Source: Candidatus Acidiferrum sp.
Lineage (GTDB): Archaea; Thermoproteota; Bathyarchaeia; 40CM-2-53-6
DNA: 24,343 bases
Assembly (NCBI GenBank): GCA_035638535.1
Contig: DASQZS010000167.1
Span: 1 to 24,343, forward strand
Direction of reading: 5' to 3'
Part shown: one piece after another, positions 2,179 through 13,493 of the stretch
Layout of the letters: every line of letters begins with the position of its first letter
Numbering within the stretch: position 1 is the stretch's first letter
Notes under the pieces: generated by a model
The model's database searches: none
Seen by the model: only the letters and a program-made list of their open reading frames with translations
What the model was told of the DNA's origin: nothing
Program-made: the position numbers and the translations under genes

Positions 2179-3966
2179 CTAGTGGAGTTTGGCGCCGCAC
2201 TTTCCGCAGAACTCGCTCGTAGTTGGGTTTTGGGTTCCACAGTTTCGGCAGTAAATCATTCCAGGTGTTGCGCCCGTAGTAACCTGTGCCGGTTGAGTTG
2301 GTTTTCGGCGAGACATCAACGCGGCAGCGACAGCTACGACGACGATCAACAGTATGCCTCCGAGAATGAGGAGTTGGTTTTGTTGTATCATGCTCATCAG
2401 GTCATTTGAGGTTGGAGTTGAAGAGGTTGAGGTTTGCGTTACCATGGCTGCGTTGACTGTTAGGACTAGGTTTGCGACATGGCTTAATCCCCCTCCACTC
2501 CCGGTCACTGTCAACGTATACGAGCCGGTTGACACATCGACTGGCAATGTGACCGTGAGCGTCGAAGCAAAGCTCGGAGCCGCCGAGGGATTGCTGAAGA
2601 CTCCATTCGCACCGGAAGGTAATCCTGAAACAGATAATGAGACCTGCGAATTAAAACCGTTAAGGGCAGCAACATTCACAGAATACGATACCGTCCCTCC
2701 CTGAAGCACACTCTGAGAGGCTGGACTCACGTTAATTGAAAAGTCGGATGCAGCCGAAACGGTGAGAGTGAAGGAGACCTGATGGGTTGCACCGCCACCA
2801 ACTCCCATTATTGTTAGCGTTGATGTTCCAGCTGAGACTGAAGATGTGGCTGTAACGCTTAGTGTTGAAGTGAAGGGAGGAGTTCCTGATGTTGGGTTAA
2901 ATGATGCGGACACACCAGCCGGTAACCCTGACATGCTGAGGGCGACACTTTGCGGTGGTCCCGTTAGTGTGTTCACAGTTACGGTGTAGCTTGTACTCCC
3001 TGCAGGAGTGATGCTCTGCTGGGTTGGTGAAATGGATAATGAAAAATCGAATTGCGCTTGGGGCGGTGGCACTGGTGGTCCGACATTGAACGTTATGCTG
3101 TTTTGATTGTTACTTGGGTTCGGATCGTTATTCGTCGAGACCGACCAGGTTAATGTGTGTGTTCCAGGCGTTGCTGTCCATGGGGTCTGTGCGCTCACGG
3201 TGGCCGGGGCGCCAGTTGGTCCAGGGTATGAGACGCTTCCTCCGCCGCATGATGTCCCGTCGATTGTGCATTCCACATCAACGCTCTGCGGATACGAACC
3301 CGTTGAAGAGAGCGCAGTCAATACCGCGCTGAAAGTTACAGGGTTACCCGCTTGAGGATTAGGGGGAATTGCTGAAACGGAACTGATCGCCCAATCTGTT
3401 GACACACCGCCGCCTGACGATTCGGAGATCTCGAGGCCAACACTGTTCCTGCGGACAGTATCTAAAGGCGGAGAGGTGCCGTTTGTTTGGAAGACTCCGG
3501 AACATGTACCGGAGCCCGTGTTATAGTAAGCAGTCCCGGGACCAGAGTCTTGTACTTGCGTGAACGCTATTGTGCTTCCTGACGGTACTGAGGCGCCTCC
3601 GAAATTGAACACGACATCCTGTTCGCTTGCTGTGGATGGAAGGTTGACGGTAACGGTCTGGGTGCTCCCTATGATGGGCCCGTTGTAGGCATTAAGGTTC
3701 GCAGTCATGGAGACCGTATAGGTTCCAGCCGGATTCGCATTATATTGCACGTGGACGGAATAGAGATTAGTACCAGGATACGATGTAACATAAAACCCGC
3801 GGCTCAGATCGTCTCCGCCAGGAGAACCGAACGGGCAACTAACTACAACCGTAGCAGCTGCAACACTCTTCGTTAAGAAGAACAATGATATTACTAGCAC
3901 TGCAAGCATGAGTGGTTTAATCGGACGCATAATCCATACTCCTAATACAGCACTCTTAGTCTCCAT
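2179..3966 (-). CDS. Membrane-anchored surface protein: signal peptide, beta-rich N-domain, CARDB-like domain, two Ig-like repeats, TM helix, cytoplasmic zinc ribbon
   Basis: Hydrophobic N-terminus ending VAAA; DWAISSV...SNNQNSITFNV CARDB-like segment; two ~100-aa repeats (DFSLSISP...SGLPAG / DFSINVSP...SGLPSG); TM LLILGGILLIVVVAVAAAL + RRK; CRNC...FCGKCG. Confidence 0.85.
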   Translation of the reverse strand: METKSAVLGVWIMRPIKPLMLAVLVISLFFLTKSVAAATVVVSCPFGSPGGDDLSRGFYVTSYPGTNLYSVHVQYNANPAGTYTVSMTANLNAYNGPIIGSTQTVTVNLPSTASEQDVVFNFGGASVPSGSTIAFTQVQDSGPGTAYYNTGSGTCSGVFQTNGTSPPLDTVRRNSVGLEISESSGGGVSTDWAISSVSAIPPNPQAGNPVTFSAVLTALSSTGSYPQSVDVECTIDGTSCGGGSVSYPGPTGAPATVSAQTPWTATPGTHTLTWSVSTNNDPNPSNNQNSITFNVGPPVPPPQAQFDFSLSISPTQQSITPAGSTSYTVTVNTLTGPPQSVALSMSGLPAGVSASFNPTSGTPPFTSTLSVTATSSVSAGTSTLTIMGVGGGATHQVSFTLTVSAASDFSINVSPASQSVLQGGTVSYSVNVAALNGFNSQVSLSVSGLPSGANGVFSNPSAAPSFASTLTVTLPVDVSTGSYTLTVTGSGGGLSHVANLVLTVNAAMVTQTSTSSTPTSNDLMSMIQQNQLLILGGILLIVVVAVAAALMSRRKPTQPAQVTTGATPGMIYCRNCGTQNPTTSEFCGKCGAKLH

Positions 3967-7422: not shown

Positions 7423-8910
7423 GTGGATGATTCATCCAGAACTGCTTTTTACCGCATATGCTCAGCTGGAAACTTGAACTGCGTTACTAAATCGGAGCAT
7501 TTCAGGTTGGAAAGAAGAACATTCCTCAAACTCGCCGTCTTAACGTCAGGGTTGACTGCTGCTGGTTACCTTGCTGGCGATTTGCTGCAGGTTACGGATG
7601 CTTCGGTCCAATCATTAACGGGTTCGCTCGATGCCGATCCGAGTGTTCCCATGAATCCAGATTGGCAGATTCCGCATTTGCTCAGGCGTGCGGGGTTTGG
7701 CGGATCACCTGATGAGATTTCATCATACCAGAATCTTGGATTAAGCGGTGCGATAGATCGGTTAGTCAACTATCAGAGTATAGATGAGAGCGCTCTTCCC
7801 GCCGAACCAAACATAACGATGGAGCGTACGAAGAAACCTTCTCCATTGGATATTCAAAAGTTAGTGTGGTGGTGGGTTGATCGCATGGTCAACACGTCAA
7901 GGCCGTTGGAGGAGAAATTGACATTATTTTGGCACAATCACTTCGCGACTGCAATATACAAAGTTCGAAGTCCGTACCTCATGTTCAAACAGAACCAGCT
8001 TCTCCGTACATATGCAACGGGTAACTTCAGCGATTTGCTGATGGGAATAACCAAAGATCCGGCTATGTTGATCTGGCTCGACGGTGCGAAAAATCGTGCT
8101 GCTGCGCCCAATGAGAACTATGGACGCGAAGTGATGGAGGTATTCACTATCGGTGTCGGAAACTATACCGAGGACGATGTTAAGTCTGCTGCCAGAGCGT
8201 TCACAGGATATCAGATCAACAAGTCAGGTGAATCTTTCTTCAACCCAAAGGTTCACGACGATGGACAGAAGACCTTCCTTGGCCAAACAGGAAACTTCGG
8301 TCCGGAAGACATAGTTAACATACTCGCTAACCATCCGGCAACCGCCAAAAGAATTACGAGCGAACTATTCTCCTACTTATCATACAGCAATCCTAGCAGC
8401 GAGACCGTGAACAATTTGGCAAACGTCTTCACGGGCTCCAACGGGAATATCGGCGCGGTCGTTGAGGTGATACTGAAATCGGATGAATTCATGTCGAACC
8501 GTGCCCACCTGAGCCTTGTAAAGAGCCCAGTGGACTATGTCGTGACAGCGATGCGATCGCTTGGTGCAACCGTGAAGCCCAGAGCGGTGATTGGGGCATT
8601 GAAGAACATGGGACAACTCCCGTTTAATCCACCGAGCGTTTTCGGTTGGCCTGAAGGCATCGGGTGGATTAATACTTCAACTATTCTTGATCGATACAAT
8701 TTTCCGCTCGCCATAGACCCTTCTTCAGTTCAGGAGGTTCAAGACGGAGCCTCAGCCAGCGACGTTGCTCAAGTCCTATTTCCAGAAAAACTTCCATCAG
8801 AAGTTTTACAAGTCATTCAGAATTCGTCGAACTCATTGGACACTCCTACTGCTCAGTTACGAAACACGATTCGTCTCACAATGTCAACTCCGTACTATAA
8901 TCTGAATTGA
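7423..8910 (+). CDS. DUF1800 family protein with twin-arginine signal peptide
   Basis: HLLRRAGFG, RPLEEKLTLFWHNHFAT, ENYGREVMEVFTIG and YTEDDV signatures; RRTFLK + hydrophobic h-region. Likely start TTG 7507. Confidence 0.92.
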   Translation: MDDSSRTAFYRICSAGNLNCVTKSEHFRLERRTFLKLAVLTSGLTAAGYLAGDLLQVTDASVQSLTGSLDADPSVPMNPDWQIPHLLRRAGFGGSPDEISSYQNLGLSGAIDRLVNYQSIDESALPAEPNITMERTKKPSPLDIQKLVWWWVDRMVNTSRPLEEKLTLFWHNHFATAIYKVRSPYLMFKQNQLLRTYATGNFSDLLMGITKDPAMLIWLDGAKNRAAAPNENYGREVMEVFTIGVGNYTEDDVKSAARAFTGYQINKSGESFFNPKVHDDGQKTFLGQTGNFGPEDIVNILANHPATAKRITSELFSYLSYSNPSSETVNNLANVFTGSNGNIGAVVEVILKSDEFMSNRAHLSLVKSPVDYVVTAMRSLGATVKPRAVIGALKNMGQLPFNPPSVFGWPEGIGWINTSTILDRYNFPLAIDPSSVQEVQDGASASDVAQVLFPEKLPSEVLQVIQNSSNSLDTPTAQLRNTIRLTMSTPYYNLN

Positions 8911-8923
8911 AAGTGACTATGAT

Positions 8924-10180
8924 ATGCCTTTGAATATAGCTCGGCGCGCTTTTCTGCAACAAGTTGCAAAGTCTGTAGGAAAAGTTCCATCACTGAACCC
9001 GCTTAGTTTCGGTCCGAAAATAGTAGACTTAACCACTCTAATGACTCCGGAGCAGACCGAAGACCTGAAAAATCGAACCCTTGTTGTCATTCAGTTAAGC
9101 GGCGGAAATGATGGCATAAACACGGTTATCCCTTACTCGCAACAAACCTACTACGATTCTCGACCCTCCCTTGCGCTTCCAAAAGATCAAGTTCTCCCAT
9201 TGGATAGCAATGTGGCACTGCACCCTAACATGACTGAACTACAGAACTTATACAACAACAATCACGTCGCAATAGTGCAAGGCGTCGGTTATCCAAATCC
9301 GAATCGTTCACATTACGAATCCATGTCTATCTGGCAGACTGCATCGATCGAATCAGGAAGCCCCGGTTGGATTGGAAGATATCTGGATAACGCTAAGAAG
9401 AATGATAGCAGCATTAATGCTGTTGAAATCGACTCACTCTTATCGCCTGCAGTTGTTGGTCAACAGCAAAGCGCGCTAGCAATTGACAGCCTAGATTCCT
9501 TCAAAATCAGACCTCTGAACAGCCTGAGTTCGCAGGCACAAACCGAGAACGTGATTAATGCGTTAGATTCAATTCAATGCACATCGTGTCAAGAATACAA
9601 TAATTTAGTAAACGCAATGATGGAAGCAGGCTTGGATTCGCTGACTGCTTCAGACATAGTACAGCAAGCCGCATCTAACTATCAATCATCCGTAGCTTAT
9701 CCGAATAATGATTTCGCGAATAGGTTGAAATTGGCTGCACAAATAGTTTCGTCAAGTCTGAGCCCACAAATTGTGTACTTACAGATCGGTGGGTTCGATA
9801 CACATGCAAGTCAGAAGGATACACAAGCAACTCTGCTCAAAACTGTCAGCGAAGGGATCTCAGCCTTCTACAAGGACATGGATTCGAAAGATAGAGCAAA
9901 CGATACGATGATCATGACTTTCTCAGAATTTGGAAGAAGAGTAAAAGAAAATGGAAGCCAAGGTACTGATCATGGCACAGCTGAACCTATGTTCCTTATT
10001 GGAGGAAGAGTAAGCGGAGGCTTATATGGATCCTATCCGAGCCTTACGGATCTTGATAGTGGCGACCTGAAATTTAACGTCGATTTCAGACAGGTGTACG
10101 CGACTGTCCTACAAGACTGGTTGGGTGCTGATCCTTCTCAAGTTCTGTACTCTCAATTCCAGAAGTTGAACATGATTTAA
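8924..10180 (+). CDS. DUF1501 family protein (alkaline phosphatase/sulfatase-like fold)
   Basis: LVVIQLSGGNDGINTVIP, RSHYES, GGFDTHASQ, FSEFGRR and GTDHGTA signatures; begins 13 nt after DUF1800, its usual operon partner. Confidence 0.93.
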   Translation: MPLNIARRAFLQQVAKSVGKVPSLNPLSFGPKIVDLTTLMTPEQTEDLKNRTLVVIQLSGGNDGINTVIPYSQQTYYDSRPSLALPKDQVLPLDSNVALHPNMTELQNLYNNNHVAIVQGVGYPNPNRSHYESMSIWQTASIESGSPGWIGRYLDNAKKNDSSINAVEIDSLLSPAVVGQQQSALAIDSLDSFKIRPLNSLSSQAQTENVINALDSIQCTSCQEYNNLVNAMMEAGLDSLTASDIVQQAASNYQSSVAYPNNDFANRLKLAAQIVSSSLSPQIVYLQIGGFDTHASQKDTQATLLKTVSEGISAFYKDMDSKDRANDTMIMTFSEFGRRVKENGSQGTDHGTAEPMFLIGGRVSGGLYGSYPSLTDLDSGDLKFNVDFRQVYATVLQDWLGADPSQVLYSQFQKLNMI

Positions 10181-10263: not shown

Positions 10264-11262
10264 ATGCTGTTGAAGGGCGTAAGAGTTACAGTCTTACTGT
10301 TGTCCTTAGCATTGATCGGCCTTACTATGCCGACTCTATCCCTATTCCCATCTGTTTTCCCAACGCGTTCGCCTGCAATGATAGGTAACGATCAAGCCAC
10401 TTCTAGCGTTTCGACCACTTCGAGCGGAGTGGTTTCAATTCAGGTGTTTTCTAATAGCGCCATCTATTCTTGCGGTGATATTGTCTTTATCACCGCCGAA
10501 ATATCCGGCCTGTCATCGCTCTTCGGAGTAACAGTACAGTTTCAAGTTTACGAGCCTGGGGGGATGTTAATGCTGAATGGGGTTTCTCAGACTAATTCGA
10601 ATGGACAGGCAACGTACCAGTTTACACTTCCAGTCACCTGTCTGACGGGTGCATACAATGTCTATGCGTTATTTTCCAACATGGGATCGACGGTAAGTTC
10701 GAACGTGGGGTTCACGGTTCAGAGTGCCACTATTACCACGGCAACTTCGAATGTCACTTCAACGAGCACGTCAACTTCACTGTCAACACTAACAAGTACC
10801 TCGACTATGTTATCAACTTCAACCAGCACATCAACCGCATTATCAACTTCAACCAGCACATCAACCTCACTATCAACATCAACAAGTACCTCGACTATGT
10901 TATCAACCTCAACCAGCACATCAACCACATTATCAACTTCAACAAGCACATCAACCACGTTGTTGACATCGACGAGTGTGCTGACTACATCGGTTGTGGC
11001 GACAGTTACGACGGCGATCGCATTCTCGACAACTTCAACCGTCGAGAGTAGTGTAGCCGTCTATGTGTTAGCCAACCCGCTTGCTGAACTTGCAGTTTTG
11101 ATTGGAGCGATCGCTTCGATTCTGAGTATAGCCTTCGTAATCAAAGTGCGAACGGGCGCAAAGTCTATAATGTGTCCAAATTGTGGACACATGAATCCTC
11201 CCCATGCTAGTAAATTCTGCGTGAACTGCGGAAAACCTCTTAGAAATGATCCTAAAGTATGA
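10264..11262 (+). CDS. Surface protein: signal peptide, Ig-like domain, Ser/Thr stalk, TM helix, cytoplasmic zinc ribbon
   Basis: Hydrophobic N-terminus; YSCGDIVFITAEI...GAYNVYA beta sandwich (MG2-like); STSTSTST repeats; TM LAVLIGAIASILSIAFVI; CPNC...FCVNCG. Confidence 0.85.
   Translation: MLLKGVRVTVLLLSLALIGLTMPTLSLFPSVFPTRSPAMIGNDQATSSVSTTSSGVVSIQVFSNSAIYSCGDIVFITAEISGLSSLFGVTVQFQVYEPGGMLMLNGVSQTNSNGQATYQFTLPVTCLTGAYNVYALFSNMGSTVSSNVGFTVQSATITTATSNVTSTSTSTSLSTLTSTSTMLSTSTSTSTALSTSTSTSTSLSTSTSTSTMLSTSTSTSTTLSTSTSTSTTLLTSTSVLTTSVVATVTTAIAFSTTSTVESSVAVYVLANPLAELAVLIGAIASILSIAFVIKVRTGAKSIMCPNCGHMNPPHASKFCVNCGKPLRNDPKV
10753..10962 (+). repeat. Intragenic tandem repeat, 7 x 30 bp (10-aa S/T unit), with 90-bp higher-order period
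   Basis: Units start at 10753, 10783, 10813, 10843, 10873, 10903 and 10933; consensus close to tcaacttcaaccagcacatcaaccxxxtta. Units 2 and 5 share aacaagtacctcgactatgtta. Confidence 0.95.
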
Positions 11263-11299: not shown

Positions 11300-11569
11300 C
11301 TAGAGTTGGTTCTCAAGAGCTGTAAAGGTACGACGTTCCTGATGTGTTGCTGTTCTGAACAGATCTTCCAACGATAATTCGTGGCTACACTTTGAACATG
11401 TTTTCAGCTTCGACAAGATTTGAAGCTTATCTGGAGAAATTCTTACGTTCTCCTCAACATGAAGAAGCGTCGTGTTGCATTTCGGACAGATAAAATTGAT
11501 ATCGGATGTTCTTGTCATAATCAGTTTGTCCCTCGCGAATTTTGAGTTCGTTACAAAAATCTGGGGCAT
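11300..11569 (-). CDS. Small C4 zinc-finger protein
   Basis: CPKC...CSKC pairs; starts 4 nt after the stop of the upstream membrane protein gene, suggesting co-transcription. Confidence 0.7.
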   Translation of the reverse strand: MPQIFVTNSKFARDKLIMTRTSDINFICPKCNTTLLHVEENVRISPDKLQILSKLKTCSKCSHELSLEDLFRTATHQERRTFTALENQL

Positions 11570-11573
11570 GGAT

Positions 11574-11888
11574 CTAGAGTTTGAGAAGCATTGCGGCGAG
11601 AGCGACGCCGGAAAGTAAGCTGAGGTAGATTGCTCCTCGAATCTTCTCTTCCTTTATGGAACTGAGAATTGTCACGTGTTGAGTCTTAACGATCCTTCGG
11701 GTTAGATGGGTAGCGATGAAGCCCACTCCGCCACCGATCACGAACACTATGATCGAGTATACTTCTGGTGGAAGGTTTTGGATGAATACGGGCATCACTT
11801 TGAGTGAGATTGTGGTTTCAACGCCAAGCGCAAGCATCGTTACGATGTGTGGTTTGGCGTGGTCCAGAAATTCGGTGAGTTCGATCAT
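11574..11888 (-). CDS. Small membrane protein of unknown function (about 3 TM)
   Basis: 104 aa with three hydrophobic segments and a basic loop; TATA-like element about 33 nt upstream. Confidence 0.7.
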   Translation of the reverse strand: MIELTEFLDHAKPHIVTMLALGVETTISLKVMPVFIQNLPPEVYSIIVFVIGGGVGFIATHLTRRIVKTQHVTILSSIKEEKIRGAIYLSLLSGVALAAMLLKL

Positions 11889-11898
11889 TTCATATCAC

Positions 11899-11918
11899 TG
11901 TCGATACGTGTATCGACA
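11899..11918. promoter_or_regulatory. Operator-like palindrome TGTCGATAC-GT-GTATCGACA
   Basis: Perfect 9-bp inverted repeat with 2-nt spacer, between the leftward TATA and the ATG at 11888. Confidence 0.8.
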
Positions 11919-11919
11919 C

Positions 11920-11927
11920 TATTATAC
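11920..11927 (-). promoter_or_regulatory. Putative TATA box of the leftward operon (minus strand TATAATA)
   Basis: Position about 33 nt upstream of ATG 11888 fits an archaeal short-leader promoter. Confidence 0.5.
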
Positions 11928-11953
11928 AGTCGCCTATTTATGAGTTCCGAATC

Positions 11954-11983
11954 TGTCGATACACTTTTAAACACCTATCGACA
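11954..11983. promoter_or_regulatory. Second operator TGTCGATA-N14-TATCGACA flanking a TATA box (TTTTAAA, 11965-11971)
   Basis: Same half-site as at 11899-11918; TATA lies about 30 nt upstream of ATG 12002, consistent with a leaderless transcript. Confidence 0.75.
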
Positions 11984-12001: not shown

Positions 12002-12115
12002 ATGAATAGCGACGTCCAGATCTGGCTAAAATCAAGAATGACCGAGATCGAAGCTCGCCTAACAGAACTGAAACGTCGCTTGCGCCAGGAAGACACACAA
12101 AATGAGCAACAATGA
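12002..12115 (+). CDS. 37-aa coiled-coil microprotein paralogous to the N-terminus of the downstream wHTH regulator (not in ORF track)
   Basis: MNSDVQIWLKSRMTEIEARLTELKRRLRQEDTQNEQQ*; 11 identities in 26 aa to NEDLKKWLESRFQKIDTRLNELEKSI. Overlaps the regulator start by 14 nt; TATA at leaderless spacing. Confidence 0.75.
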   Translation: MNSDVQIWLKSRMTEIEARLTELKRRLRQEDTQNEQQ

Positions 12116-12458
12116 AGACTTGAAAAAATGGCTTGAATCAAGATTCCAAAAAATAGACACACGCCTAAATGAACTCGAAAAATCGATCTCTGAAAACAAG
12201 CAAACGAAAATCCGAATAGCCTGGTACAGAACCCTGATCGGTATGACAGACCTAGGTGGTAAAACTGGAACAGAACAACTGGCCGATCATCTCGGCATCA
12301 GTCGCAGCGTCATAAGCGAATACTTGAACAGAATGGAAGAGGAAGGCCTCGTCAAACGAGACTTCAACGAAGACCCCGAACGGAAATCACGATTCGTCTG
12401 GAACATCGACTGGAACGCACTACCACCAGAAATAGCATCTAGGCTGAAGAAAAAATAG
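12102..12458 (+). CDS. Winged helix-turn-helix transcriptional regulator with N-terminal coiled coil (MarR/ArsR/TrmB-like)
   Basis: TEQLADHLGISRSVISEYLNRMEEEGLVKR HTH followed by wing RFVWNI; heptad N-terminus. Confidence 0.88.
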   Translation: MSNNEDLKKWLESRFQKIDTRLNELEKSISENKQTKIRIAWYRTLIGMTDLGGKTGTEQLADHLGISRSVISEYLNRMEEEGLVKRDFNEDPERKSRFVWNIDWNALPPEIASRLKKK

Positions 12459-12521
12459 CTGGATTACGACAGTCGTCCTACAGTTTAAGAACACAAAGCT
12501 CACAATCACATCGACGATCTT

Positions 12522-13493
12522 TTGCCGCCTAAGAACACTCTTCTAACCTGCCCTCAATGCGGAAAGCTCGCGGCCCGGGGGCAAAAATTCTGCGGCAAAT
12601 GTAACCAGCCCATCACCTCATGTCAAGCCTGCACCGCAATCAACCTCGTATCATCAAATTTCTGTCACAACTGCGGAAGGTCCATTCGTACCACACCACT
12701 TGCTAAAGAAAGGCAAGAACCACCAAAACCTTCCCTCACCCCTCCACAAGAAATGGCGGTTACAGCTTCCCCCACGCGCATGCAACCTGGCAGACTTCCG
12801 AGCGAACAACCAAAAATTGAACGATTACAACTCTGTCTCTCATGCAAGAAACCCATCGGATCTTCAGAAAAATTCTGTCGGTTCTGTGGAACACCGCAGA
12901 AGATCATCACTGAGCCCGCTCAAACGATACTCGATCCTCATACATTGAAAATCAGCCTTCTAATGTTAAGTAGAGTCACCGAAGCGAAAGAACACTCAGA
13001 ATATTCAACCATCGATCAATTGACGACAACGATTGGAGAAGTTGCATTGGGCAAAAACAAACCTCATGACGCGCAGGAATTGACGTTCTCCGACCAACTC
13101 AGATTGCTGACTCTAGTCTTCGAGTATACACGTGATAAAGTGAACTACAAGGGCGAGGTTTTTGGTGAGTATGTGCGATGGCCCTGGGAGACCATCAAAA
13201 CTGGCGGAGATTGCGACTGCAAGGTAGTACTTCTTGCGACTATGCTTTCCAGCTTAGCCTTTAGGAGAATGCATTTCCTCGTCCTACCAGGCGGAACTTA
13301 TTTGGACTCTATCGGACAAGGAGAGAAAAGGATACAAGGCCACGCTCTGCTTGAAGTTGAACTTGTCGACGGATCGCGAATGGTGCCTGTACGATTGGAT
13401 CCATCATGCATGGATTGTGACGTCGACGATATCGCGGATAGCATCAAACCGTTTCTTCAAAACTTCTACAGAGTCCCAATCATTCTACCGTGA
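12522..13493 (+). CDS. Triple zinc-ribbon protein fused to a transglutaminase-like (Cys-His-Asp) domain
   Basis: Three CxxC-x-FCxxC ribbons, a Pro-rich linker, then WETIKTGGDCDCK (GDC nucleophile), GHALLEV and RLDPS. TTG start. Confidence 0.85.
   Translation: MPPKNTLLTCPQCGKLAARGQKFCGKCNQPITSCQACTAINLVSSNFCHNCGRSIRTTPLAKERQEPPKPSLTPPQEMAVTASPTRMQPGRLPSEQPKIERLQLCLSCKKPIGSSEKFCRFCGTPQKIITEPAQTILDPHTLKISLLMLSRVTEAKEHSEYSTIDQLTTTIGEVALGKNKPHDAQELTFSDQLRLLTLVFEYTRDKVNYKGEVFGEYVRWPWETIKTGGDCDCKVVLLATMLSSLAFRRMHFLVLPGGTYLDSIGQGEKRIQGHALLEVELVDGSRMVPVRLDPSCMDCDVDDIADSIKPFLQNFYRVPIILP

Follow-up and report, generated by a model that had tools for sequence, protein, structure and literature searches.

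In Bacillus subtilis, SinI heterodimerizes with the repressor SinR via residues conserved between the two proteins (PMC3163267). In Agrobacterium tumefaciens, TrlR, a paralog of TraR without the DNA-binding domain, forms inactive mixed dimers with it (PMC3907764). Among eukaryotes, a comparable mode of action is seen in the microProteins of plants, such as LITTLE ZIPPER, which is directed against HD-ZIPIII, and miP1a/b, which are directed against CONSTANS (PMC4807768, PMC7584889). In the archaeal Lrs14-type proteins, it is the terminal helices that build the dimer interface, with the N-terminal helices taking part in it (PMC11841832). For very few of the small proteins of Archaea is a function known, and the archaeal examples in the literature that we searched, such as those of Methanosarcina, act on metabolic or transport proteins, with none of them copying the interaction element of a transcription factor (TF).

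Here, we describe a locus in a metagenome-assembled genome of an uncultured peat archaeon of the Bathyarchaeia, where a 37-aa microprotein encoded immediately upstream of a wHTH (winged helix-turn-helix) regulator is a copy of the N-terminal helix of that regulator. A full-text literature search, with incomplete coverage, returned no case of an archaeal microprotein that copies the interaction helix of a TF. The one described here makes a good candidate for a microprotein that tunes its own TF, which would be the first in Archaea.

The locus and its regulator

The window, i.e. the whole stretch of 24,343 nucleotides that was analyzed, is a chromosomal contig of the 2.26-Mb assembly. Neighboring genes code for, among others, a DNA polymerase of family B, an arginase and a PAS histidine kinase. 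The features of the locus, with the evidence for each, are the following:

11574..11888 (-): divergent membrane-protein gene, 104 aa, likely target of the same operators (ORF, RNA contig)
11899..11918 (no strand): perfect 20-bp palindrome TGTCGATAC-GT-GTATCGACA, candidate operator before the divergent gene (half-site counts)
11954..11983 (no strand): inverted half-sites TGTCGATA (11954-11961) and TATCGACA (11976-11983), flanking the TATA box (half-site counts)
11965..11971 (+): TTTTAAA, a TATA-like box in the promoter that serves microprotein and regulator (read from the sequence; conserved in all relatives)
12002..12115 (+): microprotein gene, 37 aa, first cistron, apparently leaderless (ORF, conservation, dN/dS, helix model, RNA contigs)
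12086..12091 (+): Shine-Dalgarno (SD)-like AGGAAG, purine-rich, 10 nt 5' of the regulator ATG, within the microprotein ORF (read from the sequence)
12102..12458 (+): wHTH regulator, 118 aa (Pfam, AlphaFold model, Foldseek)
12111..12194 (+): stretch of the regulator gene for residues 4-31, the helix of which the microprotein is a paralog (BLASTP, hhalign, predicted interface)

By its fold and Pfam domains, the regulator is a member of the MarR/ArsR-like winged HTH superfamily: HTH_5 (31.7 bits, cut-off 22), HTH_24 (30 bits, cut-off 21.9) and MarR_2 (29.9 bits, cut-off 27) all pass, and the best Foldseek matches are ArsR, MarR and the Lrs14-like AbfR2 of Sulfolobus (E about 2e-4, probability 1.00). 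Against the curated NCBIfam families it stays far below the cut-offs, with 24.8 bits for Lrs14 (cut-off 90) and 25.8 bits for Sta1 (cut-off 80). The AlphaFold model (pLDDT 87) begins with helix H0 at the N-terminus (residues 2-31), which a flexible, low-confidence linker connects to the winged HTH (39-102) and a C-terminal helix (109-117). In this model, a long C-terminal H4 is missing, the C-terminal helix having nine residues, and the long helix, of 30 residues, is the N-terminal one. In MarR and ArsR proteins, as in the Lrs14 proteins, the dimer interface is formed by terminal helices, and from these structures we infer that H0 would be the dimerization element of the regulator.

The most constant neighbor of the regulator is a double zinc-ribbon protein of 323 aa (window 12522-13493, +), which shows 50-95% identity across the relatives (loci L007-L014 and L027-L036). 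Its gene is convergent with that of the regulator in most of them and co-directional with it only in the window's own clade. A short zinc-ribbon module (Pfam Zn_Ribbon_1, DZR, DUF7577) is found at the ends or starts of several neighboring proteins (window 2179-3966, -; 10264-11262, +; 11300-11569, -; 12522-13493, +) and in some of them appears to follow a membrane segment; these neighbors may belong to a locally encoded family of surface and membrane proteins tagged with zinc ribbons. Farther upstream is a gene pair, DUF1800-DUF1501 (window 7423-10180, +; Pfam E 3e-116 and 2e-35).

The microprotein, its kinship to the regulator helix and its spread

The ORF at 12002-12115 encodes MNSDVQIWLKSRMTEIEARLTELKRRLRQEDTQNEQQ, a product of 37 aa, and shares 14 nt with the regulator ORF, whose ATG it overlaps, as read in the initial annotation of this DNA. 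The gapless alignment to the regulator N-terminus that had been put forward there is recovered by BLASTP between microprotein residues 2-29 and regulator residues 4-31 (11/28 identities, 20/28 positives, E 2e-6 for the pair). The heptad core is preserved in just the manner described (L9/M13/I16/L20/L23/L27 in the microprotein and L11/F15/I18/L22/L25/I29 in the regulator), and so is the likeness of the underlying DNA: the cores at 12023-12070 and 12129-12176 share 32 of 48 positions, with synonymous differences at a Leu, an Ile and a Leu codon, while the runner-up 48-mer match anywhere in the window has 24-26 identities. The kinship with the regulator's N-terminal helix is also apparent when the two families are compared as alignments, with hhalign equating microprotein 3-30 with regulator 5-32 (92%, E 5e-7). 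As a null set, each of the 4051 ORFs of at least 80 aa in the whole assembly was compared with its adjacent out-of-frame upstream small ORFs; the Smith-Waterman score for this pair is 65, and no other pair reaches 45 or more. The microprotein is modeled as a single amphipathic helix (residues 3-36, pLDDT 91), and searches with Pfam and NCBIfam detected no domain in it, DNA-binding or other, in agreement with the earlier statement that it has no HTH. On these sequence comparisons, the 12002-12115 ORF is an ancient paralog of H0, the coiled-coil helix at the regulator's N-terminus. The likeness between a microprotein and its cognate regulator does not exceed that of non-cognate pairs (9.3 vs 9.2 identities, p=0.32), giving no sign of coevolution or concerted evolution; this lack of a cognate excess points to one ancient duplication, after which the two copies evolved independently and without gene conversion.

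Selection on the peptide, which had been surmised from the synonymous changes alone, is evident across the relatives. The dN/dS of the micro-ORF is 0.23 (dN 0.30, dS 1.33; pairwise Nei-Gojobori over codons 2-28) as against 1.3-1.5 for the two other frames of the same DNA, and the entropy at third codon positions is about twice that at positions 1 and 2. The regulator has a dN/dS of about 0.05, and the dN of the microprotein is 3-8 times that of the regulator. The conservation of the microprotein follows one face of the helix, with an entropy of 0.53 bits at the a/d/g positions vs 1.70 at the others (p=0.0014) and with W8, L9, R12, M13, R19 and L23 invariant. The helix of the regulator shows the same conserved a/d/g stripe, and W, L, R, R and L are invariant in both paralogs, with the mean net charge being +3.3 for the microprotein helix and -1.75 for the regulator helix. 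These substitution patterns indicate that the micro-ORF is a real gene under purifying selection at the peptide level. The tail of the micro-ORF, T-T-R-E-V-K at codons 29-35 (L006, L021, L023, L026, L030 and others), is encoded by DNA that includes CGAGAGGTGAAA, in which the GAGGTGA SD site of the regulator is contained; the conservation of the tail probably reflects this site more than the peptide.

Orthologs of the regulator occur in 13 of the 59 genomes of the same family, representing two of its five genera, and none was found among 24 genomes from other families of the order; many further orthologs come from peat, sediment and soil metagenomes. We scored the state of the micro-ORF at 38 related loci. 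In about 30 of these it is open over 33-44 codons, with the start codon at the identical alignment column; this is mostly ATG, although seven loci, which belong to four lineages, use TTG or GTG instead. Its consensus is M-S-x-D-L-x-x-W-L-K-S-R-M-x-x-I-D-R-R-L-x-E-L-x-R-R-L. The micro-ORF also stands beside the most distant regulators (about 60% identity): its sequence at L048-L051 is MEPEAGERMLKWLRERAQRIEERLDKLREKIVGKVE, with 1 nt between its end and the regulator ATG, and the P0067 contig has a called 35-aa gene at its place. The stop codon always lies between 1 nt before and 35 nt after the regulator ATG, with the overlap length and the relative frame varying among lineages, which indicates that the micro-ORF is a separate gene and neither an extension of the regulator nor a frameshift site. 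A programmed frameshift joining the two ORFs was rejected on the same grounds, i.e. a relative frame and an overlap that differ by lineage (-1 to +35 nt).

A profile search among 1.84 billion representative proteins recovered about 15 microprotein clusters (at 50% identity), the remaining matches being only low-complexity coiled-coil repeats. Wherever the microprotein was found, it stood directly upstream of a member of this regulator family. More distant metagenome matches (L039-L047) were discarded as ordinary Crp or MarR proteins that match in the HTH alone and do not belong to this regulator family. The view that the ORF is missed by gene calling holds for some callers, which skip it; JGI, in contrast, catalogs the exact microprotein sequence of the window, along with close variants, as 'hypothetical protein'. 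Where callers do not skip the micro-ORF, they may call it with false upstream extensions, a point of some relevance to annotation. Public gene calls for the locus often begin too early: in P0042, P0064, P0084-P0086, P0088 and P0098, false N-terminal extensions run across the TATA box and operators (giving 'DTDDTFLNT' in translation) or cross the micro-ORF in a frame other than its own. Accordingly, the fused long forms P0064, P0042 and P0084-86 were dismissed as gene-calling artifacts that read through the promoter or in the wrong frame.

Mapped onto a tree built from the regulator genes, the microprotein comes out as ancestral, with at least four later losses or degradations. It is deleted in L011; in the L007/L008/L009 clade one copy is deleted, one is frameshifted and one is degenerate with a Gly-Pro in the helix; in L022 it is disrupted by an indel; and in L052 it has no start codon. 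The regulator, including its helix, the promoter and the SD site are unchanged at the loci that lost the micro-ORF. Such losses beside an unchanged regulator, taken together with the selection on the peptide, suggest that the microprotein is selected but accessory. Absence or frame disruption in relatives, which the initial annotation had named as the sign of a mere duplication scar, thus applies to a part of the family only; as the micro-ORF is kept in most of the loci scored, the gene for the most part withstands this check. Genome G078 has two copies of the module, one with a degenerate micro-ORF that has an insertion besides lacking a start codon (L052) and one with an intact GTG-start micro-ORF (L054).

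Transcription and regulatory DNA

Contigs assembled from four peat metatranscriptome runs cover the locus. They carry no strand information, and their ends depend on coverage:

11673-11890: X3 record 13, divergent gene with its ATG at 11888; contig end 2 nt past the ATG
12003-12163: X1 record 4, no differences from the window
12008-12587: X2 record 10, spans both genes and continues into the double zinc-ribbon gene
12042-12498: X4 record 18

Between 11891 and 12002, all four runs are without a contig. A silent stretch with expressed DNA on either side speaks against DNA carry-over, and it puts the 5' end of each of the two RNAs no more than a few bases from the respective start codon. The TTTTAAA box is 31 nt upstream of the microprotein ATG, matching the RNA 5' end, which upholds the earlier reading of the micro-ORF as first in the transcript at leaderless spacing. 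The RNA contigs thus fit a leaderless bicistronic mRNA with the microprotein as its first cistron. The divergent 104-aa gene (window 11574-11890, -) also looks leaderless, and the palindrome is flanked on one side by the RNA end at 11890 and on the other by the gene's TATA-like element, TATAATA (minus strand, about 11920-11927). All four runs differ from the window by small insertions (T; AATC or AATCA) at 12458-12462, just past the regulator stop, which are probably strain variation in an intergenic spacer.

The regulator has an SD-like site in the relatives, too, where it reads GGAGG or GAGGTGA at the same place, also when the micro-ORF is absent. No significant RNA structure was detected in the 5' region (z -0.67), and the regulator SD is unpaired. 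A TAAAAT within the W-L-K codons was considered as a conserved internal promoter of the regulator and rejected, as it is not conserved in the relatives, in which no conserved internal TATA box for the regulator was found. Four of the window's five TGTCGATA half-sites fall within 11899-11983, with 0.92 expected for the whole window, and their centers are 12 bp and 22 bp apart in the two candidate operators. Nowhere else in the whole assembly do these half-sites cluster, and from this distribution the module is probably local and autoregulated.

Candidate mechanism and parallels with known systems

The prediction of the complex was run as 2:2 with custom alignments, differing in this from the calibration set-up, and gave ipSAE values of 0.35, 0.12 and 0.41 (median 0.35) with 0.01 for the best control; this is graded as weak support, in a band in which most passes are false if the pairing was not already likely. 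Of the 80 solved complexes in the calibration, 58 cleared the pass mark, as did 2 of 110 mismatched pairs; passes with an ipSAE of 0.60 or less comprised 7 of the 80 solved complexes and both passing mismatches. The predicted interface involves residues 4, 7-8, 10-11, 14-15, 17-18, 21-22, 24-26 and 28-29 of the regulator and 1-30 of the microprotein, and the three runs agree on it at 85-88%. The models weakly suggest that the microprotein lies on H0 of the regulator, and they are compatible with H0-H0 contacts being displaced by it as well as being joined by it in a bundle. In a simple count of g-e' charges for parallel in-register pairing, the regulator homodimer (net 4.0) exceeds the heterodimer (1.6).

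Based on the above, we propose, at about even chances, that the microprotein is a single-helix paralog that associates with H0 and modulates the oligomerization and operator binding of the regulator, most likely as its antagonist. An old duplication of H0 from the adjacent wHTH regulator gave rise to the 37-residue single-helix protein. A single, probably autoregulated promoter drives both genes, with the microprotein as an apparently leaderless first cistron and with an SD-like site of its own for the regulator. Under this proposal, the conserved a/d/g face of the microprotein would pack on H0 and alter the oligomerization of the regulator at its candidate TGTCGATA operators. Most likely, H0 would thereby be withdrawn from regulator-regulator contacts and repression would weaken, making the microprotein an anti-repressor. 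The output would depend on the microprotein-to-regulator ratio, which could vary via leaderless as opposed to SD-led translation or via a different stability of the two proteins. The data themselves establish that the gene is real, that it is a paralog under selection at the peptide level and co-transcribed with the regulator, and that the half-sites cluster here; we infer the binding, the dimerizing role of H0 and the direction of the effect, with the antagonist reading in particular drawing on the analogy with SinI, TrlR and the plant microProteins. An interaction is favored by the shared a/d/g stripe, the opposite net charges of the two helices and the form of H0 as a free stalk on a low-confidence linker. 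Against the proposal count the co-transcription, which offers no obvious independent input, the TTG or GTG starts on a supposedly leaderless mRNA, the charge count favoring the homodimer, the lack of cognate likeness, and the repeated losses beside an unchanged regulator helix. With mimic and target on one autoregulated mRNA, which is the chief departure from SinI, TrlR and the plant microProteins, any switch must come from the protein ratio. In a more specific form, which we regard as tentative and somewhat doubtful, this paralog of the stalk helix of a wHTH repressor, made from the same autoregulated leaderless mRNA, would titrate the oligomerization helix, with the balance of translation or turnover setting a threshold of de-repression for a small local regulon; this would be the first archaeal case of microProtein-type control of a TF.

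The fixed-operon co-transcription that sits awkwardly with an antagonist would suit a subunit better. Two microprotein helices and two H0 helices might form a bundle that stabilizes the regulator dimer or bridges dimers on differently spaced operators, thereby tuning or strengthening repression, possibly in a ratio-dependent fashion comparable to the conditional cooperativity of toxin-antitoxin operators. The 2:2 prediction, in which both regulator copies contact the microprotein at nearly every a, d, e and g position plus 10, 17 and 24 over an area broader than a two-stranded interface, is in line with such co-assembly, as are the two different operator spacings. However, the microprotein has proved dispensable, with at least four losses while the regulator and the operators stayed, and its dN is several-fold that of the regulator, whereas one would expect relatives to retain an obligate subunit; we hence see co-assembly as unlikely, though worth serious consideration. 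A further alternative is that the likeness to H0 records origin only and that the microprotein associates with itself or with the neighboring membrane or zinc-ribbon proteins. The conserved presence of zinc-ribbon proteins nearby, the weak binding score and the lack of a coevolution signal with the cognate regulator would agree with this, but it leaves aside the common a/d/g stripe with the same invariant W, L, R, R and L in both paralogs and the restriction of the microprotein to the position directly upstream of this regulator family, and we judge it rather improbable.

The anti-repressor reading also has to be set against explanations in which the peptide itself does little. One of these treats the micro-ORF as a translated upstream ORF, whose ribosomes would set the translation of the regulator by coupling or occlusion, with the peptide being incidental. 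The placement of its stop codon, never more than 1 nt before or 35 nt after the regulator ATG, and the location of the regulator SD within its tail are what such a device would show. Nonetheless, the purifying selection on the peptide (dN/dS 0.23) with its helical-face pattern, the overlap and relative frame that vary among lineages, the absence of significant 5' RNA structure around an unpaired SD (z -0.67), and the retention of SD and regulator in relatives without the micro-ORF render this quite improbable. The same selection bears on the notion that the micro-ORF is a leftover, devoid of function, from a partial tandem duplication: a short ORF with DNA like that of the neighboring gene and with losses in several lineages might be so read, but this one is ancestral to the whole family, has a dN/dS of 0.23 and remains open with its start codon across lineages in which synonymous sites are saturated (dS about 1.3). 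By these evolutionary signatures the remnant reading is largely refuted, and we accord it only a slim chance.

The locus thus offers a cleanly defined and evolutionarily validated candidate, with its candidate operator DNA defined and its components small enough for production in vitro. If both binding and antagonism are true, it would extend the microProtein/SinI principle to the third domain of Life, in a design where antagonist and target are placed on one mRNA with different modes of initiation.

In terms of parallels with the described systems, the initial annotation had likened the pair to SinI-SinR. This stands as far as a small protein encoded directly upstream of a repressor shares the sequence of its (here presumed) oligomerization element and has no DNA-binding domain; binding through the shared element is weakly suggested by the models. 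The likeness does not extend to any relationship in sequence or fold: SinR is an Xre-type HTH protein with a C-terminal two-helix hook, whereas the regulator here is a winged HTH protein with a single long N-terminal helix, and neither protein matches a Sin-domain family. Moreover, sinI has its own Spo0A-controlled promoter, whereas here there is no separate promoter but one autoregulated transcript, with RNA from about 12003 spanning both genes. The co-transcription from one promoter, the at least four losses and a charge count that does not favor the heterodimer weaken the analogy, and while SinI-SinR is bacterial, the pair here is archaeal, with antagonism as a candidate role suggested by that very comparison.

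As in the case of TrlR-TraR, a truncated paralog of a TF has emerged by duplication, the DNA-binding domain is absent, and mixed dimers are proposed. However, TrlR keeps the whole ligand-binding and dimerization domain, has a separate inducer in mannopine and is directed against an activator, whereas the microprotein consists of one helix and is co-transcribed with its target. With the eukaryotic microProteins it shares the form of a small single-domain protein related in sequence to the interaction domain of a larger multidomain TF, that domain being here a leucine-zipper-like helix. Those proteins come from unlinked genes, whereas here we see the leaderless first cistron of a prokaryotic operon, for which a dominant-negative action is a candidate by analogy. 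Finally, Lrs14, Sta1 and AbfR2 (PDB 6cmv), the best archaeal matches to the regulator in sequence and fold, are likewise small archaeal winged-helix proteins with an extra N-terminal H0 and helix-mediated dimerization. They differ in that Lrs14 dimerizes mainly by an antiparallel coiled coil of its long C-terminal H4, with a minor part for H0 (PMC11841832), the long helix of the regulator here being the N-terminal one, and in that no microprotein partner has been described for the Lrs14 proteins. Thus, although it is a member of none of the Sin, TraR and Lrs14 families, the pair would, by analogy, work in the manner of SinI/SinR, TrlR/TraR or a microProtein and its TF.
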